Assembly (NCBI RefSeq): GCF_024521635.1
Contig: NW_026250408.1
Span: 930,001 to 994,000 of the forward strand
Direction of reading: 5' to 3'
DNA length: 64,000 nucleotides
Source of the DNA: Tricharina praecox
Taxonomy: Eukaryota
The first letter of the stretch is position 1. The number at the start of each line of letters is the position of its first letter. The notes under the pieces are model-generated. The model made no database searches and was not told the origin of the DNA. It saw nothing but the letters and a program-made list of their open reading frames with translations. Made by a program: the position numbers and the translations under genes. Below are positions 3,003 through 24,672 of this stretch, piece after piece.

Positions 3003-4014
3003 TCAATGACCCCCCACCCTCCAAACCTCGACATCGAGCACCTCAAACTTACCACCCACATCTTCACTGAGCGGCTCATTCCCGAATGTGGGACAACACG
3101 CGCTGACGCCCTTCTCGAGGGTACTATCCAGCCACAGCCCGTACTTCCCGTCGCCCCCGCCAATGCTCACATAGCTCCAGTCGCACAGGATCATGTAGTC
3201 GTTCACGCCTGAGTAGGGGAAGGCTTGGAAACTCAGGTGGGTCTCGGTGTTGGGGGAGGAGGGGTGTGAGGAAGAAGGGAGGGATGGGAGAAGGCGGGAT
3301 TTCCACAAAAAACACTCGCCCGTGCCGTAGTAGCCGTGGCGTGGCCGCAGCGGCTCGTTGACGAAAGCGCCGAAGATCTATGTAGGGGCGTTAGCACCGG
3401 GCTTCTACATCGAGTTCTGGGGGACCAACCCCGCCCAGCGAGTCCCGAACAACGAGCACGAAGCCTACACTGCCACTCCCTCCGCCGCCACCACCTCCGC
3501 CGCCACCCCCTCCACCCGCACTCCCTCCCCCCGCACTTCCTCCCCCCGCACTCCCTCCCCCACTACCCCCTCCACCACCAGAACACCGAGAATAAAGAGT
3601 CCCCAACGAAACACCATGGATATCCAGCGCGTAAACACAGTGCCAGTGCTCATGCAGCTGCAGTCTCGGCGGCAGGAGGAGCCGTATCTCCTCAGCGAGC
3701 GCCTGCTTTAGCAGGCGGTCCCTCGGCAGGCGCAGCGCGGGGAGCGGCGGGAGCGCCGGGGGCGTGTATAGTGATGGCGGCGAGGGGGAGGGGCGGGTGT
3801 GTGCTGCGAGGCCGGCGCCGGGGGCGGGAAGGGGTGCGGAGAGGGGTGGCGAGGTCGACGGCGAGGTCAAAGCCTTGAACGTCCACGATAGCGCGGAGGT
3901 CAGCGTGGAGGGCAGCGAGGGGAGGGAGCTGTAGCTTTGCGTGCGTGGGTGCATGGGAGGGTGCCCGTCGGGCGCGTCGGGCGCGGCGGGCGCGGCGGGC
4001 GGCGGGGAGCTCAT
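3003..4014 (-). CDS. oxr1: Oxidation resistance protein 1, TLDc domain
   Basis: LAEEIRLLLPPRLQL, HGVSLGTLY, GFVLVVRD, then an intron near 3378-3426, then IFGAFVNEPLR, YYGTGECFLW, FQAFPYSGVNDY, IGGGDGKYGLWLD and TFGNEPLS. Gly-rich insert inside the domain. Confidence 0.9.
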
Positions 4015-4668
4015 GGTACTCTATAGTAGGTAAGGGCAATTGTCGCGTGTAGCTTGGTAGGTGTGGATACTCTAGATAACTTCGTCGTGTGCGTTACAAT
4101 GCGGTGTAGATAGCTGCGTCGATGGGCCACGGAGGTGGTGATGGTGCAATGCTAGGTAGCAGGTGGTAGGGTGCAGGGTGTCGTATCATAAAGCTTGACA
4201 ACGGGTTCCGCCGATCAGACGTCGGTAACTATGCGTAGCCATGATGTTCTAGAAGTATGACGAGCATTCGGTGCAGTAAAAACCGAGGCATCCACCATTT
4301 TAGATCACACAACCTTCTTCTAAGCTCTCACGAGCGTTACTCTCGGTAAATACGCCAACATGTATTCTATAACTTGTCGGGCTAAAGTGTATGGGTTTAT
4401 ATGGTAAAGCAATATATGGTATATCGCCAAAAAAAAAGATTAGAAATAGTAAAAAAATCCCATAGCGAGTACAAAAAGAAAATCCCCACTCGCAAGCCAA
4501 AAATAAGTCTTCGGGAATGGAATTGAACAAGGAAACACAACCTCCTCCTGTCTATATTACGATCATTCTCCTCTTCCAATCTCCACCACCGTTCCAAATC
4601 CCCCCCATAGCAAAACAAACCCATTCGCCGGCCAAAAATCTTCTGCAACCTTTTATAAACACTCGCTT

Positions 4669-7600
4669 TTACATGATAACCTACTCAATGTTAGCAAAAG
4701 CCATTAATGGAGGAACAGAGATAATGAGACGTACGCAATCCTGCTCCTTCGTCTGCTGGGGCACTCCCATCTCCTCGAACGTCTTGGGTCCCTTTCCGCT
4801 CATAGGCGCCTTGACGGGTGCCGTCTGCGCCTTCACGGGTGGAGGTGGCGCAGGCTCAGGCGAGCTGGGCTCGGTGTGTGACAGGGGCGCCGGGGGGCCA
4901 TTGGCGGTTGAGGGGCGAGGCAGCTGTTGCTGTGGCTGTGGCGGAGGCGCCCATGGGCTACCGCTGGGAGAAGGCGAGGTGGGCAAACCCATCGGCTTTC
5001 CAGGAGGCCGGGGGCTCAACGGACTAAGAGGAGCGGAAGGAGAGTTAGCACCACCGACGGGAAGTCGTCCAGGTTGTTGCATTCCGGGGCCAGGCGATCT
5101 CGGGGGTCGTGGCGATCTCGGTGCGTTGGCAATGGGCGCTTCGAATCCGACATCGACCGGAGGAGGACGGTGTTTGCCTTCCGGTCCAGCGCCGTATCCA
5201 TCTGATCCCGAGTTAGGAGGAAGTCCCGGTCGTCCAGGATGTGGCAGCCTACCAGGACCGTGCATCGGAGGTCCGGGCGCGGGTCCTTGGCCAGAGGGCT
5301 TCCTGAAGGGCCCGCTCGGTCCGGGACCGCCCATCGAGCCCATTGCGGTTCCTGCGCGTGGAGGATACGTTCCGGCGGGAGGGATCATTCCGGGTCCGCT
5401 AGCTATAGAGAAAGGCCTGTCAGCGAGACGAACAGCAGAAAGTGGACGAGGTTGAGGACCATATCCAGCGGCAGATGAAGGCCGAGGGCCAAGGCTGTTG
5501 GAGATTCCTGGACGATCACTCAATGGGTAAGGGATCGCCGTTCCAGACCGGGGAGGGAGAATGGCAGATTGGGGGGCTCCATAGGTTCCAGCAGGCGGGG
5601 GCATTCCACGAGGGGGCATTCCATGGGGGTGGGCATCATGTGGGACAATGGCGGATTGGACTCCATAGGACATACCGTGTTGGGGCGCATCGTCTGTTCG
5701 AATGAAACTCGTGTTTAGGGGCGCCATCGAGCCCTGCCTAGGCGGGAACTGGTGTTGGTTCGGAGGCGGATAGTTGTACTGGCCGGGTTGAGGATTCAAA
5801 GGGTCCGGCATGTCAACTTCCTCGATGGTAGGCGCTATGTGCTGTTGCTGTTGGCGCCTCTCGGTCAATGGGTTCTTTCCGCGCATGGAACCGTGGCGAG
5901 ACTTAATCTTGGCAACGGCAACGTTCTCGTGGTCCTTCCGGGAAAGCGTCTTTGATCTCGAGATACCATCGATACGTCCGGTAGCGTCCTTGTTACCGTG
6001 CTCGGCAGCCTACAAACCCGTCAGAAACCAGACGACGAGCACAAACACGATGCTGCTGCTCCTGCTTACCTTTGCATACCAACGTTGAGCCTCCTTAAGG
6101 TCAACCTGGACATACATTCCAATCTCGTAGAAGTATCCTTTCCGTGTCAGTAGGGGTGTGAGTTCCAAAGGAGCTATTGGAAGTTACCGATGGCGAATTC
6201 AGCAGTCCCAAGACCGCTCGAAGCCGCTCTCTTAGCATACTCGTAGGCGAGGTGCTCGTTCTTCTCGAAGACTCCTTCATGACCACACAGGAACCATTTA
6301 CTGATGGCCATCTCGGCTTCCGCCTCTCCCTGTCTCGCTGCAAGTGCGTTGTAATGCATGGACAGTGCAGGGTTGAAATCACAGCCCAGCTGGCACAGCT
6401 CATAGGCGGTTCCCATTTTGAGTTGGGCACGCTATAAGGCAGGTTGTCAGTAAGGGGGTTAAGGTTGCGGGAAGCCCATGCAACTTACCGAAAATCCGAG
6501 GAATGCCGCCTTCTGGATCATCTCCCTCGCCAAAGTAAGGTCGTTCGGCAGATAGCCTTCAGGAACGTCGATTCCGGGTAATTCCCGAGCGATGAGCATA
6601 CCGTAGACGTAGGCACCCTGCGGGGCGTTCTCGTCTGCGTGCTCTGCTGCGAGTCGGATCAATTCGCAACCTCTTCGGTAGTCTTGCCTTTGGCCGTGCT
6701 GCCCAAGCAACGTCATCATTCCCAACCGCTGCCGCAACGTCAGTACCACCAACAAATTAAGGTTGCTAGATTACCGACATAGTTGGAAGCCGAATCACCC
6801 AAGCGAGCACCACGCTCGTACCGCGCAATTGCCTTTTGGGGCTCGTTTGAGTTCTCAAACTGCATACCCATCCGGTACTCCGCCCGCGCATACTCCTTCT
6901 CTCCGGCCCTTGCATAGCACCTGAACGCCTCCTTCTTGTCCACCGGGAAGCCGAACTTGCCAAACTCCAACCAACTGCCCCTCATAAACTCGGCCCGAGG
7001 GTGGTGCTGGTCGGCCAAAAAGCTCACAACGTTGATTGCGTCGGTCTTGATCTGGTGCTCCAACGCCGGGGTCTGCGGCCGCGCGGGGGGATCCGCAATC
7101 CGCGTGTAGTAGTTCATTGCGATCTCGACGTAGTTCAACGCATCCTGCGCCCACACCAGCTGCATCTCCGGGTCGTTGGACGACAGCACATCCATCCGGG
7201 CACCCTCGATCTGCGCTTCCTTTTCCTCATCGGACGGCGGGATGTGCTGACCGGGGTTGATCAGTCTTGGAAAGGGGGAGGGCTCGTGGGGCCCGTCGAA
7301 CCGCGCCAGGTAGTCGTCTGCGATCGAGGAGTGGTACGACGAACGGCGGTCTTCGCTGACCGGTCGTCCTCCAGCTCCGCGCGGAGGGGCATATTGATCT
7401 TGGTATCCACCGCCCTGGTGGTAGCCGCGACTATTGTTCACCTCCAGTTCGAGGTGCTCGAGGCTGTCGGTGATCTGCTCAGGTACCTCCGGCATGATGC
7501 TGTTGTGGCGGGATTAGCAACGAGGCAAGAGTGAGAGTAAAAGGCAGTGCAAACGGGCAAAAAAGAGTGTGAGCGGGACAGTGGAGAGAAGGAGTGGAAG

Positions 7601-8003
7601 GAGCGACTGGGGAGAAAAGCAGGGAGAAGGGAGAGGATGAGGAGAAGGAGAAGAAGGAGGAAAAGAAGGAGTCAAAAAGGAGAAGAACAAACCGTTGCGG
7701 AGCGGGAGAGACAATGTTGAGCTCAGGCATCATGTAATCATCTCTGCCAGGATAGAAAGTGGCTTGTGTATGGCCTCCATTATTTCTTCCTAAAGCCGCG
7801 TATCGAAAGCAGTTTAGCTGTGCATCCTTGCGCGGCCGACGGGAGGGGTCCGTGGTGGATGGCGATGAGCCCAAAACCATCTAGAACATACCTCTGCCCT
7901 GAGAACCATAGCTGCCGTGGTGCTGGTGCTGCTGGTGGTGGTGCTGCTGCTGCTGTTGCGGATATTGCTGTGGATGGCCGTGGTGAGGACCGGCGTAGGC
8001 CAT
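4669..8003 (-). CDS. SEL1-repeat chitin synthase activator, Chs4/Skt5-like, with C-terminal CaaX motif
   Basis: Multi-exon; starts MAYAGPHHGHPQQYP at 8003. SEL1 repeats (AEYRMGMQFE, AEMAISKWFLCG, AEFAIG) and a Pro-rich tail. The last intron joins EQDC to GTT ATC ATG TAA, giving the CVIM* prenylation motif. Confidence 0.9.
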
Positions 8004-9619
8004 TGTTGAAGCTGGACGGAAGCCGGCAACGAAGCGAGCGGGCGATATCACTGATTATTAAGAGGTATTTTTTTATATTTTTCGCACAGGAGATCGGCGG
8101 CACTGGAGAAGAAGGGAAGGTTGAGCAGTCGGTGGGCGGGGGAGCGGGACAGGCGGGTTTTGAGGAGGAAGCCTTCCTTTCGGGATTGTTGTGTCGCGGT
8201 TGAAGCTGGGGGCGGGGTAACTACTGGGCTGGGGCGCCCATGTACCGAATTTGGGGGGTTGTTGTTTTTGGATGTTTGGGTGGTTTAGAACTCTAGAGAG
8301 AGACCCTTGCCGCTCTGGGTATGACGGTAGTGTTCGACGCCGCGTCACTAGAGAGTTCTGGGTGGCCAAATTTCGGATAGCAAACAAGAGGAAGCCCGAG
8401 AGCGTGGAATGCACAGGTGGCTGAGCGGCGGCGGACACGGATAGGGAGCACTCCGAGGCGGTGGCAGGCCGCAGAATGTTCTGGCTGTGGCTCTGTGAGT
8501 GCTATTCGGAGGCGGATAGTTATTACTAGGTGAGTACTATGGGGCAGCTGTGTGGTGAAGCTGAAGAAGGAGAGCGACAGTGAGCAGTGGGCACTTGGCA
8601 GCGAGCAGCAGGCAGACACGCAGGCACGGGCAAATCAGCTGCGATGAGTGCGGGGAGAGGATCACTATGTTGCAGTAGTTACATATGATTTCGGCAACTC
8701 ATCGCGGCGCTTCGACTTGTTTTTGGCACACGCGATGCACCGCGCGAGAAGCTTCGCCTCGAGCGTGACGAACGCCCCAACACGAGGCGGAGTGCGTCTG
8801 CAGTGCGTGGAGGCACTGAGCGGTGAGGAGGTGGGGTTCAACTTCAGCTTTGTGGAGGAGCCAGTTAAAAATGGAGCACTGGTGACCCGGCCCGCCTCAG
8901 CGCCTGGCGTATGACCCTGGGGCCTGAACACCACGTGGGCTGACGAGTGATGTATAGTGATCATCCGGGGAAGGGGAGGGAGGGAGATGGAACATCGACG
9001 GCAATGGTAGCCGGAATATTCCTCCTGCGACTCGAGGACCAATACGGCGGGATTCATTACGAAAAGGAGGTCCTTGCTGGAGTGAGTACATAGCTGCTTG
9101 GGTTCCTTCTAGGTACCTCCTGGAGAAAGATAGATTCTAATTTCGATGTTAATATGGATAATGGCGAGATGTCAAAACGATGGCATGGCGGGTGCTTGTT
9201 TAGCGAATGCGACGGAGTGGACTCCACGACTGGCCTGCAGTGTGGTCATGGTTTATGTCCGTACGAGAAGTTCTTTGTGGAGATGCAGATTTACCGGTGG
9301 GATAGGGAAGTATCTTCTTGGCGATTCTATGATTACATACTCCTTGGAGTCAGCTCACCCAGCTGCTACTCTACTATAAGAAGTCCAGGAAGATGGCACG
9401 GCTGGGTCTCTGGACATTGCCCCAAGGAGTGCATATGTAATAGAGCATCGGATGGAACAACACAACTCGAGAGACTCGATGGGCGTTGTAGAGGATCACA
9501 ATACCGAACGACTCATGAATCGCCCACGCTTCTAGATATAGGTAGTATGTACGTTTATTGAGTAATATCTACAGATCCATGTGTACACACCACGCTACCG
9601 AAACAGCGCGTTTATCGAA

Positions 9620-10798
9620 CTAAGCGGCGGTAAGCTGGTCACGACGACGCCAGTAGAACTTGACGTTGGCGGGGTCAGCCGTGGCAGCCTTGTTGTCGCC
9701 TGCTGTCTTTTATTAGCCATGTCCATACTGATGTAAACGATGCTTGAGATCACATACCATCACGACGCCAGTAGAACTTGACATTGGCAGGGTCAGCCGT
9801 GGCAGCCTTGGCGTCGCCTCCTGCTGCCTTGTATTAGCCATGTACATATGGATTGGATGTAAGGAAGAATGGGAAATTCGCACCATCACGACGCCAGTAG
9901 AACTTGACGTTGGTAGGGTCAGCCGTGGCAGCCTTGTTGTCGCCTTCTGCTGCCTTGTATTAGCCATGCACATAATGTAGCGAAGAATAGGAAATGCGCA
10001 CCATCACGACGCCAGTAGAATTTGACGTTGGCAGGGTCAGCGGACATAGGAGACACTTCGACCTCGTCACCTCCTATTGTCAAGTATGAGCCATGTCCGT
10101 ACCGATATGAACGAAGTTTGAGATTACATACCATCACGACGCCAGTAGAACTTGACGTTGGCAGGGTCCGCACCACCAGCCTCCTCGGTGTCGTCACCAC
10201 GGCGCCAGTAGAACTTGACGTTGGCAAGGTCAGCGGCCGTAGCAGACTGGTCGACCTCGTCACCTCCTATTGTCAAGTATGAGCCATGTCCGCACCGATA
10301 TAAACGAAATTTGGGATCACACACCATCACGGCGCCAGTAAAACTTGACGTTGGCAGGGTCGGCAGCCGCGGCAGCCTTGTCGTCGCCTCCTGTTGTCAA
10401 GTATGAGCCATATCCATACCGTTACAAACGAAGCTTGGGATCACAAACCATCACGACGCCAGTAGAACTTGACGTTGGCAGGATCAGCGGCCGTAGCAGA
10501 CTGGTCGACCTCGTCACCTCCTATTATCTTTTATTAGCCATGTCCATACCGGTATAAACGAAGCTTCGGACCACATACCATCACGACGCCAGTAGAACTT
10601 GACGTTGGCAGGATCGATATCGGCACCAGCAGTGACGTGATCACCACCGGCCTTGACACCGCCTGATGTATGATATAGTATTTAGTACCTTTGTCGATCG
10701 GGCCGAATGGAATGAGACTCACCGTTGACAACGGGAGCAGGAGCAGCCGAAGCCATCATAGCGAGGCCGAGGATGAGAAGGATCTTGGAGGCGTGCAT
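9620..10798 (-). CDS. Kex2-processed multi-core repeat precursor peptide (dikaritin/UstA-like RiPP precursor), 236 aa, 9 x NVKFYW-RR
   Basis: Exons 10798-10723, 10662-10579, 10520-10449, 10390-10325, 10266-10132, 10073-10002, 9946-9884, 9820-9758 and 9699-9620, all GT..AG phase-1 introns, 711 nt in total. Signal peptide MHASKILLILGLAMMASAAPAP, then nine acidic/Ala spacers each followed by D(P/L)(A/T)NVKFYWRR, ending DQLTAA*. Confidence 0.92.
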
Positions 10799-10928
10799 GA
10801 TGATTGAGTTGGTGAGGATTAATGAGTGAGATTTGGGATTGTAGATGAAGGAAGATGTCGAAGATGAGGGAAAGTTGTTGATGATGGATGGTAGGTAAGA
10901 AGAGAATGGATGGAGGGAACTGGAGGGC

Positions 10929-10934
10929 TTTATA
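10929..10934 (-). promoter_or_regulatory. Candidate TATA box (TATAAA) of the precursor gene
   Basis: TTTATA on the + strand ~130 bp upstream of the precursor ATG, followed on the minus strand by a CT-rich leader. Confidence 0.5.
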
Positions 10935-11002
10935 GCTATAGCCGAAACGGGCAAACAGGGCGTGGAAAACAAAACAAAACTTGATTTTTGATGTTTGATG
11001 GC

Positions 11003-11032
11003 AACCTCGTCGTCGTCAGTGACGACGAGGTT
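11003..11032. promoter_or_regulatory. Perfect 12-bp inverted repeat in the divergent promoter
   Basis: AACCTCGTCGTC-gtcagt-GACGACGAGGTT; a degenerate copy lies at 11641-11670. Confidence 0.55.
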
Positions 11033-11477
11033 TGACTTCATCGCCGATTGACTTGCAGGAACCCGCTCGAAGATTTCAGGACGGATGGCATCGGCTGTTC
11101 AGCAACGACATGTTTCTAAGGTACAAGCAGGTGCGAATTGTTTTGGCCTCCACCAGACCTGCAGGAGGAGGAGGAAGAGGAAAGCATCGCATCGGAGGCA
11201 GAGCAAGAGTGCCCAGCAGGGTACCGTGTCTGCAGCCGGTGCGATGAAGTAGGAAATAAGGATATGCAGTGATATGTTCTTGGTGCGATTTTCTTTATTA
11301 TTTTTTTGTTTTGCAGGTAGCGGTGCCACATCGTGCTGGCTGGTAACGAAGTGTCAACGTCCGTCCGGACAGAGTGGGCAGGAAAGGAGTGCGACGGCTC
11401 GTAGTCTAGATGGGCTGCATGTGAATAAACTGAAGATCTCTCTCCACCACCATAGACAAAGCCACATCAACATTCCA

Positions 11478-11566
11478 ATGGCCAAGGACGAGGAAGAGAG
11501 TATCCCTCTCACCCACGCTTCCTCCTGCATCCCCGGCGGGGAGGACGCCGGCTTGGAGGATACTGG
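11478..11566 (+). pseudogene. Truncated duplicate of the DUF3328 gene 5' end
   Basis: MAKDEEESIPLTHASSCIPGGEDAGLEDTG matches MAADEEESIPLTHVYSRLPGAEDAGLEDTG at 11848, then runs into a second copy of the promoter. Confidence 0.85.
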
Positions 11567-11847
11567 AGGTTTTCACAGCTATCGCCGAAACGAGCGGACG
11601 GGGCTTGGAAAACAAAACTTGATGTTTGATGTTTGATGACAGCCTCGTCGACGTTAGTGACGACGAAGTTTGACTTCATCGCCGATTGCCTCGCATTAAC
11701 CTATGCGAATATTTCAGAACGGGTGGTATAGGCTGGCCAGCGACGCCATGTTTCCAAGATTGATGGTAGGTGCAAATTGTTTTAGAACCCACCATATCAG
11801 CTTTTCATCTACACCACTACCATCGACAAAACGACACCAACCTTCCA

Positions 11848-12815
11848 ATGGCCGCGGACGAAGAAGAGAGTATTCCTCTCACCCACGTCTATTCCCGCCT
11901 TCCCGGCGCGGAGGACGCTGGTTTAGAGGATACTGGTTCGGAGCCCACTCCCCCCACCCGTTCCTCCAGGCTGCTCGCCTGTCCTCTCAAGATATCCAAG
12001 CTTCCATGGATGGTCCACGGTCTCCTCATCATGGCCTACACCATCGGCTTCGTGGGCCTGTACGCCAGCTTTCCCGGCTCCTTGCATCCACACAAGTGGG
12101 ACTCCGACGAGCGCTCGCACATCTACTGTACGTCCCCACCTCCTCATCACTTAACCAAACTAACGCCCCTCCGCAGCTCCCCTCTGGGACCAAGTTGAAT
12201 ACAAGAACCTCCGTTTCAGCTCGGGCCCCTGGGTGAAGACTCCGTACAAGGGCGCGCCAACCCCCGCGATCGATGAGGCGTGGAACGCCATCGTGCCGCT
12301 GTACCTCATCCGCATCCCGGCCGCTGCCATCCCGCACCTCAACAAGTCCGCCACCGCCGCGACCTTCCCGGGCTCGAGCGACTATCTGGGCACCGTCGAT
12401 GCGTTCCACCAGCTGCACTGTGTCAACCTGGTTAGGAAGTACACCTACGCCGATTACTATAAGGACATTGATATCGCGTGGAGGGATCCGCCCGACATGT
12501 TGAGGACTCATGTCGACCATTGCATCGATGTGCTCAGGCAGAAGATCATGTGCGACGCCGACGTCTGTAAGTTGTTGTTCTTGTTCTGGTTATACGGCTG
12601 GAAAATTCGAGCGCAGCTGACTGGTGGTGGAAGCGGTGATCACCTACTCCTGGGTCGAGGGCCGCGAGCACGTCCTCCCCGACTTCTCGAACACACACCG
12701 GTGCAGAAACTTCGACAAGGTGCGGGACTGGGTTCTGGAAAACAAGATGGATATGGGCTCGAGGGAAATCACCAAGAGTAAGGAGGCGGTCAGTGTGCCT
12801 ACCGAGGCGCTCTGA
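11848..12815 (+). CDS. DUF3328 / UstYa-family oxidase (putative RiPP cyclase), ~283 aa
   Basis: Exons 11848-12127, 12177-12566 and 12634-12815. N-terminal TM helix (WMVHGLLIMAYTIGFVGLY), YSPLWDQVEY, PYKGAPTPAIDEAW, twin HxxHC motifs FHQLHC and HVDHCIDVLRQKIMCDAD, and PDFSNTHRCRNFDKVRDW. Confidence 0.95.
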
Positions 12816-12872
12816 GTTACCTCTGAGCTTGTACATATGGTGTCACTCGTGGAAGTAACGAGTGCTTCACTA

Positions 12873-12949
12873 TGACATTGAAAGTACATACACTCTGACA
12901 ATGAAAGTACATACACTCTGACAATGAAAGTACATACTCTACACTCTGA
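12873..12949. repeat. 23-bp tandem repeat (TGACAATGAAAGTACATACACTC) x~3 in the DUF3328 3' region
   Basis: Read directly from the sequence. Confidence 0.85.
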
Positions 12950-15487
12950 TGCATAGCAGTCTGGTTCCGCTGTGGGATGAAAACTGTGTGGCGTTTTGTG
13001 ACAGGTGCACACTAACTATCTCGCGGGGAAAAGTGGGGTACTTCTTTCTGTACTCGGATACCGGTAACTATTCGGACCCAGCTGAGGCAGCTTGGTAGCT
13101 TGGTGGGCTCTGGGTACTGCATGGTGGAATTTAAGCGCGACCCGGTACCAACGAATGGTTGGGCGAGAAAGAAAGTGGCAAAGTGCTATGTAACTATTAG
13201 CTTTCGTGCATACTCTGCCTGGCTGACATGCGGCGCATTGCCGCGTCCCCTAACTATGATAGCGCGGTATGCATCCGCAACCGCTCTTTCCTTCTTTCCT
13301 TCGAAGCTTCGAAGCTTCGGAATGTTATCCACCCGCCTCGTGGTTCGTCAAAATATTCGTCCTAAGAACCGGGTCGTTATGGGGGACCAGGCAAGCCGTT
13401 CTCCCGGAAGCAGCAGCACGTTTGAGGTTGTCACGTTAAGAGTTTCGTCAATGATAACTACGGTGCCTATGACCGAGAACCCCACAACCCGGATGCGTGC
13501 CGACATGGCGTGAGAAGGACGGGTATAGTTGCCGCTGTCATGCTTCTTCGTTTGCAGTTGTATACATATCCGCATGCATTCCAGCTGAACAGCGTGGCTA
13601 CACATATTCGAAGCTACCGCATGTATGGCTTCTGGATAGGTAACCGTGCTCCGCACCGGCATCTCGGACACTCGATACGGCACGGTATCGATTCCCTTGG
13701 ACGATTACGCGGATACTATACCTACGCGAGGATCCGCAGCCGAATCATACGTACCGTGGTCCGTATGGAGTCTTGCAAGGCGTGTTGATGCGGTTCCGTC
13801 TTAGCCGCCGCGTCTGACCGAAGCTGACTAATTCTTCGTACATACGTACAGATCTTTCGGGAGCGGCCGTTGCTTCCTTCTCGGTGCCAGAACCCTACGG
13901 TATTCAACACTTGAAGATGTATCCGGATTCTGCGTGCCGTAGCCCTACTCCTCGCGGCAAGATCTGATGCGAGACACTGGAATCCGACACCGTGCCGGCC
14001 TACGGTGGGCGAGATGGGAGGAAACCATGTATCCGACTCCTCCGTGGGGTTGATACATGCTGGGGAGTTAGCCTATCCGCCGCCACCATCACCCCACACG
14101 GAGATATATATCCAGGTACGAGTGCTGATAAACCTATATCTAAAGCTTGATTACCAGCACATGCCACACGGGCGAGAACGAGTGTTACACTGGAGCCACT
14201 CCCAGTCCACGGCATCCGAGACTCTGGAAGACGAAAGGCATGGGACGAGATGAGATTCGACAATTGGTTGGCTAGCGTCCAAGCGTCTGCTCTAGTTAGC
14301 GGCAGCTTTGTATTGGTTGGTTCGGCTTGGTGGCAGAAGCGTTTCGAGATGGGCCGGCTGAAACGGAGTGATTCTTGCCCCTGTGGCCTGACTGACTGAC
14401 TGACTGACGGCATAAACGCTGAGAATCGCCAGCGGTTCCAGCAACGATGCGTGGGGCGAATAACGAAGGAGAAGGAGAGAGCGGGGGGCTCGGATACGTC
14501 AAAAAGATGAAAGAATCAGGCCATTCGTGCCCAGCTTGGCACGTCGTCTGTCTGAAGTATTCTCGATCTGCAGACACCGACTTTCTGTGATGGGGATTCT
14601 GGTTATGCACCACGAAGTACCCCTGGCCGCGTGTAAAGTAGAATGTTCTATGTTCCCAGGGAGCACCGTGGCGCAGGAGTAGCAACCGTAGTTACTTGTT
14701 ACCGTAGTTACCTGCCTGCCTGCATACTCAGCACGCGAAGCCGATCTCTTCAGCCTTCAGCTTCCGTACCTTTTTCTCTCCTCCCTCCTCCCCCCCCTTC
14801 TGGGAATATATACAAACTACATACAAACTCACTCAGCAAGCATCCAAGCATACAACAAGCATACACCGTCCCACCACTCACAGCAGCGTTCCAACCGCTG
14901 CTGCAGCTTGTCCCCCCCGCCTCCCCTCCTCCTCCCCGGATACGCGTTTTTTCCATATCTGCGTTGCATTTTCACCTTCTTCTTTGTCCCTCGTTCTTAC
15001 TCTAAATATCCGTGAAGGCCGTCCCGCCAGCGTGCATCGCCGAAGCGTCTTTCTTGCGCGTGGGCAATACCGACAGCTAGCAACAAGCAAAGCAACATCT
15101 ACCGCTCTCCTTTCTTTGGCACGAAGCGGACCTCCACCGACGGACGACCAACAAGAATCAGAAACCCCCCCGTCGCTGCCCACACCCCCCCCCTCCTCCT
15201 CTTACCACTACTCCTCCTCCTCCGCCGCGCTTACTACAACTTACCAACATCGTACGATCCTCTTCCGCCGTTTCCGAATAGAATAAAAAAGAACACCGCC
15301 GCTTGCTACTAGTTCTCTCGACAACCGTTCAACAGCAGTTCAGCTGGTCCTGAACACCAACTCCGACAACACACCACCTACCTACCTACCAACGACCTAC
15401 CAACTACCTACCTACCTTTCCACCCACCAATACATCGTTCAACAGCTGGCGACGGAGCGCCGAGCGCCCGCAAAGAATCACAACAAG

Positions 15488-17562
15488 ATGAGCACAATGG
15501 AAATGTCTAATCGATCGCTCAATTCGCAATCCGAGAGGTCTCGATGGCCAGCTCTAGCCACCAGAATGGGCGCAGCGGATATCGTCAACTCGGGTTCGAA
15601 GACGCTGTCACTGGGACAAAAGATTGACCGCTGGATGGTGAACGAGGGATATCGGAGGATGTGGGTGCTCTTGTTACGGCTTGCTTATTTGTGTCCCGTG
15701 CTAATGAATGTGGTTGCAGCTTCATCGGCGTGTTCATACTACTGCATCTGCTGGTGTTCGGATTTGGCTTCATCCATTATTCGTTAAAAGTTTGGCTGCC
15801 CGTTCCTGTGATCGAATGCACATACGGTACTGATGCCGTGTGACAGGATAATCTGGTCGGGCCGCGAGCAACATTTGGTGTCACTTTGCCTATAGCGAGG
15901 TCGGCCGCGTTGGTTCTCCATGTCGATGCTGCACTCATTCTCTTCCGTGAGTACATTCTACAAGTGTAATAGCGATAGATGCTGATTGGTGGTAGCTGTA
16001 TGTCGCAACCTGATTTCGATGGCCCGACAAACCGCCCTCAATGGAGTTGTTCCCTTCGGTAAGTTTTCATTCAAATTTTACCGTGAACACTAGCTAACTG
16101 ATGACAGACAAGAATATTGCTCTTCACAAGAGTGACTACCACCCCATCCCGACTGTCCCAGGAGCACACGTAGCTGACTTCATATTAGTGACGGGATGGT
16201 CAATAGTGTTGTTCTCTTGGCTTCACACCATCGCTCATTGGAACAACTTCGCGCAGCTCGCCATCAAGCAAAAGCTCGGCTTTGTCGGCTGGCTCCAAGC
16301 CAACTTTGTTTCGGGACCAGGCTGGACGGGATACATCATGTTGACGTGTCTGATGGCAATGGCAATCACCGCCCTGGAAGGGCCCAAGCGCAAGAAGTTC
16401 GAGAGGTTCTGGTATATTCACCATCTCTTCCTGGTCTTCTTCTTCTTCTGGTCTTTCCACGGCTCGTTCTGCATGATCAAGCCGGACAGGGCCCCGTTCT
16501 GCGCTAGTATCGGAGTTTTTTGGAAATTCTGGATGGTGGGTGGCCTGCTCTACTTGGGCGAGAGGACTTGGCGCGAGATCCGGGGAAAGCACCAGACGTA
16601 CATCAGCAAAGTCATCGAACATCCCAGCAATGTCGTCGAGATCCAGATCATGAAGGAGCGCACCACGGCCAGGGCCGGACAGTACATCTTCCTGTGCTGC
16701 CCCGAGGTTTCCATCTGGCAGTACCATCCGTTCACTCTCACGAGTGCCCCAGAGGAGGACTACATCTCGGTCCATGTCCGCATGGTTGGTGACTTTACCA
16801 AGGCGCTCGGAAAGACGCTAGGGTGCAACTTGGAGAAGAAGGAGGAGAGCGGTAGGGACGCAAAGCGGAACAGGAGAGAGTCTAGGATCATTGGAGTGGA
16901 CAAGAACACCAAGGAGGATGTCGACCCGGCCATCCGCAGAGTTCTGCCTAGGGTCTACATCGACGGACCGTTCGGAAGTGCCTCCGAGGATGTGTTCAAA
17001 TACGAGGTCGCTGTCCTGGTCGGTGCCGGTATCGGTGTTACTCCTTTCGCATCTATCCTCAAGAGTATCTGGTACAGGAGCAACTACCCCCAGAAGAAGA
17101 CTAGGCTTCACAAGGTATACTTCTTTTGGATTTGCCGAGACTTTGGTTCGTTCGAGTGGTTCCGTTCGCTTCTTTTGGCCATCGAAGCGCAGGATATTGG
17201 TCACTTGATCGAAATCCACACCTACCTCACAGCCAAGATTAAACCCGATGATGCTACCAACATCATGATCAACGACGCGAACGCCGAGAAGGATGCCATC
17301 ACTGGACTGCGTGCGCCCACCAACTTCGGTCGGCCGAATTGGGACACCGTGTTCAAGAGCATCCGCTCGATCCACAAGCCCGCCGAGTGCGGTGTGTTTT
17401 TCTGCGGGCCCAAGGCCTTGGGATCAACATTGCACGTCAAGTGTAATCAGTACTCGGAGCCGGGATTCTCTTTCGTCTGGTATGTTTCGCCTTATCTTAT
17501 CTCCGCTTCCGCGGCCAGTGTGCTAACGGTTTCATCTCTGTAGGGGCAAGGAGAATTTCTAG
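15488..17562 (+). CDS. noxB: NADPH oxidase catalytic subunit, NoxB/Nox2 type
   Basis: N-terminal extension SERSRW...DRWMVNEGYRR, heme His pairs (HTIAH, HHLF...FHG), FAD motif HPFTLTSAPEED, NADPH motifs GAGIGVTPF and FFCGP. The last intron gives WGKENF*. About 7 introns. Confidence 0.93.
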
Positions 17563-21995: not shown

Positions 21996-23864
21996 CTACC
22001 GCTTCGCCTTTTTCTTCTTCCCCCCTCCACTGCTACCACCTTTTACAGGAACTAGCTTAGCATGACCAGGGTTCTCTTTGAGGTGATTGAAAAGCTTCGT
22101 TTTCGACGGAAAAGACTCTCTACAGCTTGAACAGTTGAACTGTACACAGCCATGTCAGTCGCCACTCACCACGCTCCATATCGAGGGGAAACCCACATCG
22201 GTCTGCGCCTGTTCCTCCTCCACCGCCGCCTTTTGTGCACGTTTCGCTCGCTTAGCTTTCGCCTTACCGACTTTGGTGGCGGGCTTGGAGTCTTCATGGT
22301 CTGAGATTGCCGTGGAGGCGAGGCCGCTTGATATCCCGTCCAGACCCTCATCCTCACCGAGTATTCGCGCTTGGAATTTCTCTGCTGAGACGTATTCATC
22401 CGTGTCTGAGTCTTCTGCTGGTTTTTGCTCTGGTTCTGGTGCTGGTGTGGCGGGAGTCTCTGTATCTATTACTTCCTGCTCTTTAGGAGCAGGTGTGGGC
22501 TCCTTCGTATCCAGGCTATCATCCAAGATATGGTTCTCCTCCGCCGATAACTCTTCCTCGTCTTCCATGAGCGTATACTCAGCCTCAGGTTTGTAAGCCC
22601 TCCCCCTGACGTCTCTGTCTAGATCGAACTCCTGATTCTCCTTCATCATTTGCCGCTTTAGCTGCTGCACCGCTTTGACGTGTTTCTTGCTTTTCTCGTG
22701 AGCATCCATCTGGCCCTGGCTGCGGAACACTTTCTTGCAGATGATGCACTCGTATCGCTCCTCCTCCTCCTCTTCTTCCTCTTCGGCCTCCTCATCACTC
22801 GCCACCGTTTCCCCCTCCACCTGCTCCCCATCCAACTCCCCATCCCCCTCCTCCTCCTCCTCCTCCTCGCTTTCAGACCCCTCATCCTTATCATCGCGAA
22901 CCTGAGTCCAATCCGCGGCCTTATACTCCCCCCGATTCTTCTTATTCTCCTCTCTTTGCCTCATAGCCTGCTCCCTGCTCTTCTTCAACAACGCCGCCTG
23001 CCGCTCTTTCTCGGTCATCGAGTTCGGCGTATACCTCGGATCTCTCTTCCTCACAAACTTAACAAACGATGCAACCGTATCATTAAATTCCCTTCTCGCC
23101 ATTTCCCTGGCCTTCATATTCTCCTTCTCCATGGCCCTCTTGACCCTCCGGTCTGGAGCGTCGGTATACCGATAAACATCGCACCACGAAAAACTTTTTC
23201 TTGTCGCAAAATTCGTCCACGCAAGGTAGAAATCCTTAATTGTCCCCGACTCATACGTATCCCGCTCGCCTCCAAAGCTGGGATAATAAACCGGATCTTC
23301 ACCCTCCCACTCCGCCGCTTTCACCTCTTCATCCGCAAGCTGTCGGAAACTCTTTCTCAAAAGCTGATAAAATCCTTGCGGGTCACTCTCGTCGAACGAG
23401 GTGTTTATACTGAAATGGCCGAACCAGTCCAGAATGTCTGAAGATGTGGTTACATCCACGGGCTTCGATCCTTCCCCAGGATCTCCAGGCTGGTGGCCGC
23501 GCAAGATGGCGTCCCGGTGGGAATCGTACCATGCCCGTTCCTGCGGATCAGAGAGAACCTCGTAGGCAGCCTGTGCCTCGGCGAACAGGGCGGTGGTGCG
23601 CTCAACGTCTTGGTAGTTCCGGTCGGGGTGGAGCTCGAGCGCTTTTTTGCGGTAGGCTTTCTTGATCCTGCGATTGATTGATTGATTAGTTAGCGGCGGG
23701 GGAGAGGCGCGACAGGGGGGTGGGCGCAGGCGCACGAACTCTTCTGGTGTCGCGGAGCGCTCGATGGATAGGAGCGTGTAGTAGCAGGTTTTTGTCGGTT
23801 CTGTGACGGCGGCGGTCCGGCCTTGGCCTTGGCCGCCCGCGTCGGAGGACGGTGTTTGGCCCAT
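21996..23864 (-). CDS. JJJ1: J-domain protein with C2H2 zinc fingers (Jjj1/DNAJC21-like ribosome biogenesis co-chaperone)
   Basis: CYYTLL...IKKAYRKKALELHPDRN, AYEVLSDPQERAWYDSHR, APDRRVKRAMEKEN, C2H2 finger CIICKKVFRS...HEKSKKH; a second finger follows the last intron. Confidence 0.9.
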
Positions 23865-24672
23865 TGTTTGTCGTGTCGTCGAGTGCTAGTTGGATGCGTG
23901 GGAGCTGTTGGAGTTTTGTTTCGTGTAGTTACAGTTAGTGGTGGTGGGCAAGGTGGGGGGCTTGGCGGAGAAGACTCAGAGGTGATACACTATGATTCGA
24001 CAGAGGGCACGTGACGGTTCTGATTGAGACTCAGGTATGCCTTGAACTGCGATTGGTCTTTTTGAATGGGCAGCAAGAAAGGGTATGGCCTGAACTTACG
24101 TGCCCCATTCATGGTGTTAGGACACACTGAATATTTAGTGCATCTCTACTCATTCGCTAGGTTTTAACAAGCTCGCGAGAGCTGTTTGAACGAATGATGA
24201 TTACATACCCAACTTAAACCTACATCTCATGATATTAATAGCTTAGCCTCTGACTCGATATCGTCAACGAAGTATATCCTGTGAGCATGGACCAGCAAAA
24301 ATTCTGGCTGATGGTGCCAGGCCGGGAATGCGCAAATGTGAAAAACCTCAATAACAGATAATTCCACAGCCGGGGCATAAGAAAAACAGCCGCGTGTATA
24401 CGGAGGATCTCCAGCAGAAGGCGACTGATAGACATTCGCAGCTACGATCAGAGCAGGAAGGTCTCGTTAGAGTTTGCCCTCCCTGAAGTTAGAGTTCCAA
24501 ACTTCGACATAAGCCACCTCAGCATGTAGCAAACCGAACCTAGATATCAACTCTATGAGCTAAGAGGTCATACTTTTTTACAAAAGTTTCATTGAGCTTT
24601 CCTCTCTATCAAAAAGCTCGGTGTCTCCTTTCCCTTCCCGTAACATCCCTCCCCTCCACCACCACCGCAATC

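Follow-up and report, generated by a model that had tools for sequence, protein, structure and literature searches.

A repeat-precursor gene and a divergently transcribed UstYa/DUF3328 gene: a probable two-gene, ustiloxin-like peptide pathway in a Tricharina-like Pezizomycete

The 64 kb stretch of Tricharina-like fungal DNA analysed here (hereafter the window) carries two adjacent genes, which, as modelled from the sequence, encode a kexin-processed repeat protein (KEP)-type precursor and a complete UstYa/DUF3328 protein and are divergently transcribed from a shared region (Table 1). The precursor would deliver nine copies of an aromatic peptide core, NVKFYW, each bounded by an Arg-Arg (RR) cleavage site, and on balance the pair appears to constitute a ustiloxin-like (dikaritin-type) peptide pathway of only two genes in a Tricharina-like Pezizomycete. 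An earlier note, written from the letters of the same DNA, had proposed such a pair, and its claims are taken up where the results bear on them.

The precursor gene appears as a tandem array, whose periods are 118-193 nt, on the minus strand (10798-9620). In the 64 kb window, a degenerate NVKFYWRR pattern has nine matches, all of them on the minus strand and between 9645 and 10606, compared to a mean of 0.00 matches in 100 dinucleotide-preserving shuffles of the window. Splicing is required to join these blocks, because the unspliced minus strand gives only short stop-to-stop frames with one or two cores each. When the ATG at 10798 is combined with eight donors (10722, 10578, 10448, 10324, 10131, 10001, 9883 and 9757) and with AG acceptors 52-66 nt downstream of them, a single open frame with nine NVKFYW cores is obtained. 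As many as 1,080 in-frame acceptor combinations stay open, and the 12 models that were output all contain the nine cores and comprise 235-239 amino acids (aa), a spread that arises because introns 6-8 end in tandem CAG-CAG acceptors. All eight introns are of the GT...AG type and have lengths typical of fungi (52-66 nt), and six of them are not multiples of three; their removal restores one frame through all nine repeats, with no stop or frameshift in the precursor. Donor 1 (GTGAGT) follows the signal region, and donors 2-8 each interrupt a Gly codon after its first base, immediately behind the Arg-Arg-Asp codons. Introns 2-8 have further features in common, namely GTxxGx donors, a branch-like box (GCTAAT or GCTCAT) 12-22 nt before the acceptor, and a YAG end. 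The eight canonical introns, the secreted-type product and the nine repeats described in the earlier note were all recovered, its 236-aa protein being one of the 235-239-aa models, and the repeat unit that it quoted, GGDEVDQSATAADPANVKFYW-RR-D, occurs in the spliced product. The tandem in-frame acceptors of introns 6-8 (CAG-CAG, then AAG) are located on the minus strand at 9944-9950, 9818-9824 and 9700-9703; their alternative use could add or remove one or two spacer residues and would leave the cores untouched.

The N-terminus of the precursor, MHASKILLILGLAMMASA followed by AP, is composed of a basic n-region (MHASK), a hydrophobic core (ILLILGLAMMA) and SA before the AP, which creates an Ala-x-Ala end. 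With a hydropathy peak of 2.84 (Kyte-Doolittle, 11-residue window), it is signal-like and, judged by inspection and hydropathy, a predicted signal peptide. The nine units that make up the repeat region are 17-24 aa long and consist of an acidic or Ala-rich spacer, followed by A-D-P-A-N-V-K-F-Y-W-R-R and then D, G or R; the residues after RR read D-G-G-D, D-A-G-D or G-D-D, and Tyr is present in 9/9 cores. X-Ala or X-Pro dipeptides after kexin sites are a hallmark of pheromone precursors. Features of the alpha-factor type are absent from the precursor: no X-Ala/X-Pro spacer follows RR, and a DUF3328 gene adjoins. Mating-factor KEPs are reported to be without DUF3328 neighbours, apart from three exceptions (PMC7329392). 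KEPs in general have been defined by three or more tandem repeats that span 8 aa or more between KR, KK, RK or RR, none of them longer than 100 aa (PMC7329392); the precursor has nine repeats of this kind, each ending in NVKFYW-RR.

A comparison of the copies with each other indicates which part of the repeat matters. The 24 nt coding for NVKFYWRR have a mean pairwise identity of 95.6% between copies, compared to 83% for the 12 nt coding for the ADPA flank, 66% for the seven homologous introns (2-8) and 63% for the coding spacers. Within the core block four sites vary, all of them synonymous third positions (AAC/AAT, AAG/AAA, TTC/TTT, CGT/CGC), so that 72 codons (8 codons in 9 copies) contain no amino-acid change. 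Because the introns have diverged by about a third and the translated core is unchanged, the repeats would be old, with the peptide end as their conserved part. An unchanged core beside drifted introns therefore argues for selection on the spliced, translated product. By these comparisons within the array, strong purifying selection acts on the NVKFYWRR core; gene conversion by itself would not leave just the core spared.

The neighbouring gene on the plus strand starts with an ATG at 11848, has introns at 12128-12176 and 12567-12633, and ends with a stop at 12815. Against the Pfam profile PF11807 (curated cutoff, 25 bits), the open reading frame of exon 2 scores 128.7 bits (profile positions 49-183) and that of exon 3 scores 34.8 bits (positions 184-220), and the two frames jointly span positions 49-220 of 220. 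Over its full length, the spliced model can be aligned with 15 relatives from the library, without a frame break, stop or frameshift, and both splice junctions fall inside conserved blocks (YSPLW; DADVSVITYS). The residues of the two HxxHC motifs, H77/H80/C81 and H111/H114/C115, are invariant in 16/16 aligned sequences, and the motifs are 29 residues apart; C125 in exon 2 is likewise invariant in 16/16, and the last exon contributes another, near-invariant Cys. In the alignment, the predicted membrane anchor falls on the relatives' hydrophobic segment, and it is preceded by an acidic, Pro-rich N-terminus. A protein search gave 15 matches from 174 candidates, including one lichen protein with 61% identity across 47% of the query; the nearest library relatives, from Aspergillus piperis, Piccolia ochrophora, other Aspergillus and Penicillium, are 45-46% identical. 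Structure searches of the PDB returned 0 matches by sequence and one by profile, an actinin at E = 0.2, i.e., a chance match.

From its sequence, the neighbour is clearly an intact, family-typical UstYa/DUF3328 protein. The earlier claim of an intact DUF3328 gene, arranged head-to-head about 1 kb away and equipped with both HxxHC motifs, is confirmed (1,049 bp from ATG to ATG; HQLHC and HVDHC), and the profile hidden Markov model check that had been suggested for this gene gave the PF11807 scores above. The word "divergent" that had been attached to the protein does not fit the strong Pfam match, which reaches 128.7 bits with exon 2 alone, though the nearest relatives are just 45-46% identical. 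In the characterized protein CctR, a single membrane helix lies between a disordered N-terminus on the cytosolic side and a helical domain in the lumen; the protein forms a lumen-facing, disulfide-linked homodimer that carries two Cu at HxxHC(x)nHxxHC and needs O2 and electrons (PMC12435403). The cyclase AprY and the halogenase ApnU are reported to be likewise Cu- and O2-dependent (PMC12435403). The UstYa encoded here is predicted to have a CctR-like architecture.

Table 1. Features of the two-gene locus and the genes around it (positions in the window).
Feature	Position	Strand	Basis or remarks
Precursor gene, coding sequence, 9 exons, ~235-239 aa	9620..10798	minus	gene model; ATG 10798, TAG 9622-9620
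Nine NVKFYWRR codon blocks	9645..10606	minus	starts 10606, 10476, 10352, 10222, 10159, 10029, 9911, 9785, 9667
Exon 1, MHASKILLILGLAMMASAAPAPVVN, signal-peptide-like N-terminus	10723..10798	minus	basic n-region, hydrophobic core, ASA followed by AP
Intron 1, 60 nt	10663..10722	minus	GTGAGT...CAG
Intron 2, 58 nt	10521..10578	minus	first of seven homologous introns, each after RRD-G(1)
Intron 3, 58 nt	10391..10448	minus	
Intron 4, 58 nt	10267..10324	minus	
Exon 5 (…DLANVKFYWRRGDDTEEAGGADPANVKFYWRRDG)	10132..10266	minus	sole exon with two cores; 45-aa search query
Intron 5, 58 nt	10074..10131	minus	
Intron 6, 52 nt	9950..10001	minus	alternative in-frame acceptor +3 nt
Intron 7, 60 nt	9824..9883	minus	alternative in-frame acceptors +3 and +6 nt
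Intron 8, 55 nt	9703..9757	minus	alternative in-frame acceptor +3 nt
Shared divergent intergenic region, 1,049 bp	10799..11847		internal tandem duplication and multi-copy insert
UstYa/DUF3328 gene, 283 aa; exons 11848-12127, 12177-12566, 12634-12815	11848..12815	plus	spliced model and PF11807
Predicted UstYa membrane anchor, MVHGLLIMAYTIGFVGLYA, residues 55-73	12010..12066	plus	best 19-residue hydropathy window, mean 1.65
First HxxHC motif, HQLHC	12407..12421	plus	invariant in 16/16 aligned sequences
Second HxxHC motif, HVDHC	12509..12523	plus	invariant in 16/16 aligned sequences
Flanking genes: UDP-glucose:glycoprotein glucosyltransferase, TLDc protein, Sel1-repeat protein, ferric-reductase/NOX-type flavocytochrome, mitochondrial carrier			
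Flanking genes, rest: GT2 enzyme, ankyrin proteins, DnaJ/zuotin-like, CSN8, WD40 protein, polyprenyl synthase			

The region between the two start codons has been rearranged. A tandem duplication of ~640 bp is evident from the matches of 10911-11162 to 11554-11801 and of 11444-11566 to 11814-11936 (76-84% identity), and the upstream duplicate contains a dead UstYa start, in which ~31 codons from the ATG at 11480 give way to divergent sequence and a stop. As a result of this duplication, each of the divergent genes has its own copy of an upstream segment that was probably a single, shared promoter segment before. Between the duplicated parts, the segment at about 11163-11443 occurs once in the window, and its word depth in soil contigs is 50-197x vs ~7x around it, with loose ends and numerous variant contigs; a dispersed repeat or a piece of a transposon was probably inserted here into the promoter region. 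Just 3' of the UstYa stop, three copies of a 23-bp unit (95% matches) occupy 12868-12937.

The only public runs found to contain the stretch are two DNA soil-metagenome runs of one study, with shares of 0.87 and 0.34; a variant allele is present in a second soil run. The coding differences, at 11897, 12290, 12355, 12385 and 10739, amount to the conservative changes R17H and I132V and two synonymous changes in UstYa and to one synonymous change (Pro20) in the precursor, and none of them is disruptive. As read from these contigs, a related strain retains both genes open in the parts covered. The metatranscriptome of the same soil study has a share of 0.00, with 0 contigs on the stretch, and is uninformative about expression.

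Relatives of the precursor were sought in protein, metagenome and literature collections. Exon 5 gave no match at E <= 0.01 among 1,244 candidates from a word-indexed library of proteins of 80-2000 aa, and a HMMER search of 1.84 billion representatives returned two matches at E <= 0.001, which were rejected as spurious because they are long repeat proteins of a satellite-like kind that lack the NVKFYW core. Scanning JGI metagenomes with the degenerate pattern NVKFYW-R/S-R/S gave 10 loci with a single match each, which were rejected as chance: in none of the ten was there a second KFYW or FYW(K/R)R in any frame, only three have RR, and most have adjacent stops. The searched protein libraries consist of annotated or prokaryote-style gene calls, in which a nine-exon gene is easily missed; the protein library likewise lacks the UstYa of the window, which shows that this genome is not annotated there, so that the absence of the precursor says nothing about gene callers having overlooked a "hidden" gene, as the earlier note called it.

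In the full-text literature library searched, the string NVKFYW does not occur. KFYW, VKFYW, FYWRR and FYWKR are absent from the accessible KEP supplements of PMC7329392, and KFYW, FYWRR and NVKF are absent from those of the KEP survey PMC6339444; the file copies of both are possibly incomplete. A text search for known cores in the accessible part of PMC9233826 found none, and a thin literature search found no paper that describes KEP genes with one intron per repeat. The earlier statement that the core is unrecognised from described dikaritins thus agrees with its absence from every catalogue and paper searched. In the collections searched, the NVKFYW core occurs nowhere else, and the pairing of a KEP gene with a DUF3328 gene is well known; what is unusual about this locus is the FYW-ending core, the RR sites, the minimum of two genes, the Pezizomycete host and the presence of one intron per repeat.

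The genomic surroundings were surveyed by Pfam scans of all stop-to-stop frames in the window that are 110 aa or longer (89 + 89 frames) and by an extra scan of 88 frames, which comprised frames of 50-109 aa in 4000-9700 and 12700-16200 as well as UstYa exon 1. Among these frames there was no tyrosinase, methyltransferase, major facilitator superfamily or ATP-binding cassette transporter, or S41 peptidase, nor an AprR-type reductase, a non-ribosomal peptide synthetase (NRPS), a second KEP or a second UstYa. This result bears out the earlier remark that no tyrosinase, methyltransferase or transporter is adjacent, and a two-gene unit among general-function genes is a fair description of the locus.

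A ferric-reductase/NOX-type gene (16098-17540, plus strand; Ferric_reduct, FAD_binding_8 and NAD_binding_6) lies ~3.3 kb downstream of UstYa, with its first exon(s) further upstream. DUF3328 enzymes need copper and electrons, but the nearness of a flavocytochrome gene to the UstYa gene is most likely a coincidence. Open frames of 100-190 aa without a Pfam match are found in 12816-16000 and 8500-9600, e.g., 9094-9558 (plus) and 14708-15784 (plus), the latter of which perhaps represents the 5' portion of the ferric-reductase-like gene. A single-exon DnaJ/zuotin-like gene at 22158-23885 (minus strand) encodes a protein that shares 95% identity, over 98% of its length, with a protein of Tricharina praecox, a member of the Pyronemataceae (Pezizomycetes), and the window is placed in this family on that basis; the next named match of this protein, from Trichophaea hybrida, is 61% identical.

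The following pathway is proposed for the two gene products. The precursor would enter the endoplasmic reticulum, and in the Golgi or late secretory pathway kexin would cut after each RR; an acidic residue after RR fits known kexin sites. Kex1-type carboxypeptidases remove the two Arg, which would in this case leave ~20-residue pieces that end in ...NVKFYW. A membrane-anchored, lumen-facing UstYa dimer, presumably an O2-dependent oxidase with binuclear copper, might then modify the aromatic end that is conserved among the repeats. Most likely, the reaction would be of the AprY/UstYa/UstYb type, in which the Tyr side chain is joined to a C-H two or three residues upstream (Lys or Val). Once RR has been removed, Tyr occupies position five of six, which makes the Tyr(i)-to-i+2 ether of ustiloxin and phomopsin impossible. 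A Tyr bridge to the upstream Lys or Val is therefore offered as a best guess, with a Trp bridge as the more novel possibility. Peptidases could shorten the pieces from the N-terminus, removing the acidic spacer as far as the conserved A-D-P-A flank, so that a small macrocyclic peptide of 6-9 residues would be released, with nine copies per precursor.

The assignment of the pair to the dikaritin type, as made in the earlier note, depends on how the type is defined. What stands is the signal-like N-terminus, the nine RR-bounded Tyr repeats and the adjacent PF11807 gene with both HxxHC motifs, which agrees with an enzyme-centred definition of dikaritins as a signal-plus-repeat precursor near a DUF3328 gene with two HxxHC motifs (PMC12048977). 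What does not stand is membership under the original five-part definition (PMC12048977), since the window has no tyrosinase, methyltransferase, multiple DUF3328 genes or transporter/peptidase. Working clusters without those components are known, e.g., that of asperipin-2a (PMC12048977; PMC6514808).

A functional link between the two genes is consistent with what has been reported across fungi. In 1,461 fungal genomes, the number of DUF3328 genes peaks at the position adjoining KEP genes, and 31.8% of all DUF3328 genes have a KEP no more than 15 genes away; Tyr is found in 65.6% of DUF3328-linked KEP repeats vs 38.2% of others (PMC7329392). Venturia inaequalis alone has nine such clusters by the same manual criterion (PMC9632046), and UstY-type genes are widespread in lichen fungi (PMC12048977). 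Several points weigh against a two-gene cyclic-peptide pathway. Neither a transporter nor a reductase, tyrosinase or methyltransferase was detected nearby in the Pfam scans of the window, and without precursor relatives, cross-species conservation contributes no support. Tyr is second from the C-terminus, so a cross-link must run upstream or involve Trp, and the cleavage site is RR, not KR as in UstA, PhomA and GigA. The splicing of the precursor and its co-expression with UstYa are predicted from sequence signals. Moreover, cyclisation is not assured by the presence of a DUF3328 enzyme, as members of the family also hydroxylate, halogenate and desaturate (PMC12048977; PMC12435403), and KEP-derived peptides of mushrooms were detected in linear or minimally modified form (PMC9769878).

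These points lead to the alternatives that have to be weighed. The precursor might be an ordinary KEP that gives rise to linear, unmodified peptides with a signalling, pheromone-like or surface-active role, and UstYa might act elsewhere or adjoin by coincidence. The catalogue of KEPs published in 2020 lends some credit to this possibility: of 7,878 catalogued KEPs, 1,758 have a DUF3328 neighbour and 6,120 (78%) do not (PMC7329392). Peptidomics of four mushrooms found KEP peptides that were linear or minimally modified (PMC9769878), DUF3328 enzymes act on non-ribosomal peptides as well, e.g., in cyclochlorotine biosynthesis (PMC12435403), and no other gene for tailoring or export was found by the Pfam scans. 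However, the two genes are adjacent and divergent with a common intergenic region, in line with the peak of DUF3328 counts beside KEPs, and mating-factor KEPs, with three exceptions, lack DUF3328 genes (PMC7329392). The window contains no NRPS or other gene that could make an alternative substrate, RR is followed by D-G-G-D and not by the X-Ala/X-Pro dipeptides of pheromones, and the repeat is conserved at its aromatic end, which contains Tyr as known UstYa substrates do. Linear, unmodified peptides are thus regarded as an unlikely outcome, albeit one to be taken seriously.

If the two genes do form a RiPP (ribosomally made, post-translationally modified peptide) pathway, UstYa might still hydroxylate, halogenate or desaturate the core, e.g., by beta-hydroxylation of Val, Lys or Phe or by forming a dehydro-residue there, which would result in a linear modified peptide. 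The family does include hydroxylation (CctR), halogenation (ApnU) and other reactions (PMC12435403; PMC12048977). Yet ustiloxin, phomopsin and asperipin-2a each need a UstYa homologue for their Tyr-based macrocycle (PMC6514808; PMC7329392), and in RiPP clusters non-cyclising UstYa proteins accompany a cyclising one, as among the five of phomopsin, whereas only one is encoded here; a non-cyclising enzyme is accordingly rated as distinctly improbable. Least credible of all is the view that no functional gene underlies the repeat array, which would be either an unexpressed or decaying relic or the product of a wrong intron model. This view would be compatible with splicing and expression being predicted from sequence signals, with the lack of a precursor homologue in the libraries searched, and with the duplication and repeat insertion that rearranged the intergenic region. 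It is very hard to reconcile with 8/8 GT...AG introns of fungal lengths that have branch-like boxes and restore one frame through nine repeats, with the absence of stops and frameshifts from both genes, and with 0 changes in 72 core codons vs introns at 66% identity, which needs selection on a spliced product.

If the two-gene, ustiloxin-like pathway is real, it would be about the smallest testable UstYa pathway, with one precursor and one enzyme, and would provide a clean system for a single DUF3328 copper oxidase that acts on a peptide ending in Phe-Tyr-Trp. The pair would extend such pathways to a Tricharina-like soil Pezizomycete. The locus also holds a warning for genome mining: a precursor gene of nine tiny exons becomes visible only when eight introns are called right, and KEP surveys have used annotated proteins. 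No new kind of biology is implied, as KEP-DUF3328 pairs have been catalogued in large number and several have been characterised. A bolder proposal, which we hold to be rather doubtful, is that the single UstYa makes a cross-link on the F-Y-W end that is new to fungal ribosomal peptides, e.g., Tyr-Trp or Lys/Val-Trp as in plant BURP cyclases. The product would then be a new scaffold from the smallest pathway without a dedicated transporter, tyrosinase or reductase; in addition, the build of one intron per repeat would allow exon-plus-intron modules to duplicate as units, and the tandem acceptors would vary the spacer.

Known systems resemble the locus to different degrees. The plant BURP-domain cyclases, which produce burpitides, are similar in the way they work: they are Cu/O2-dependent side-chain macrocyclases in which four planar His hold two Cu, an arrangement that has been likened to the DUF3328 site (PMC12435403), but they belong to an unrelated plant family, and their core is often fused to the enzyme. 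The catalogued KEP-DUF3328 pairs (PMC7329392) share the KEP repeat structure of the precursor and the commonest position of the UstYa gene, i.e., next to the precursor gene; in the accessible text of that catalogue, the type described here is not included. Phomopsin (PhomA/PhomYa-e) and epichloecyclin (GigA/GigB) have a repeat precursor, kexin sites, a DUF3328 protein and Tyr-based cyclisation in common with the proposed pathway. Phomopsin biosynthesis involves five UstY homologues, a tyrosinase and a methyltransferase, whereas one UstY and neither of the other two are found in the window; the epichloecyclin cluster has its own kexin gene, kexB, and the window has none.

Ustiloxin is made from UstA, in which 16 copies of YAIG are flanked by acidic ED and by KR, and the trimming proteases are unknown (PMC6514808). 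UstA and the precursor described here share a signal peptide (predicted for the latter), repeated cores, a conserved acidic upstream flank (ED there, A-D-P-A here), a dibasic site downstream and an associated DUF3328 protein with two HxxHC motifs. Ustiloxin formation needs both UstYa and UstYb, the tyrosinase UstQ, UstM and many tailoring enzymes, in contrast to the one UstY encoded here, and its Tyr is the first residue of the core and not the fifth of six, so that an identical Tyr-to-(i+2) ether is not possible. Among working pathways, the best analogy is that of asperipin-2a of Aspergillus flavus, whose four-gene cluster (AprA, AprY, AprT, AprR) converts the core FYYTGY into a bicycle of two macrocycles, each closed by an ether between a Tyr side chain and a beta-carbon, for which the single AprY is essential (PMC6514808). 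Both systems combine a secreted multi-core precursor and an aromatic-rich hexapeptide (FYYTGY there, NVKFYW here) with one UstYa-family enzyme in a very small cluster that lacks a tyrosinase and a methyltransferase. They differ in that no transporter or reductase accompanies the pair described here, the core has one Tyr instead of three and ends in Trp, the cleavage sites are RR instead of KR, and nearly every repeat contains an intron; the likeness of the two enzymes is stated at the level of the UstYa family.

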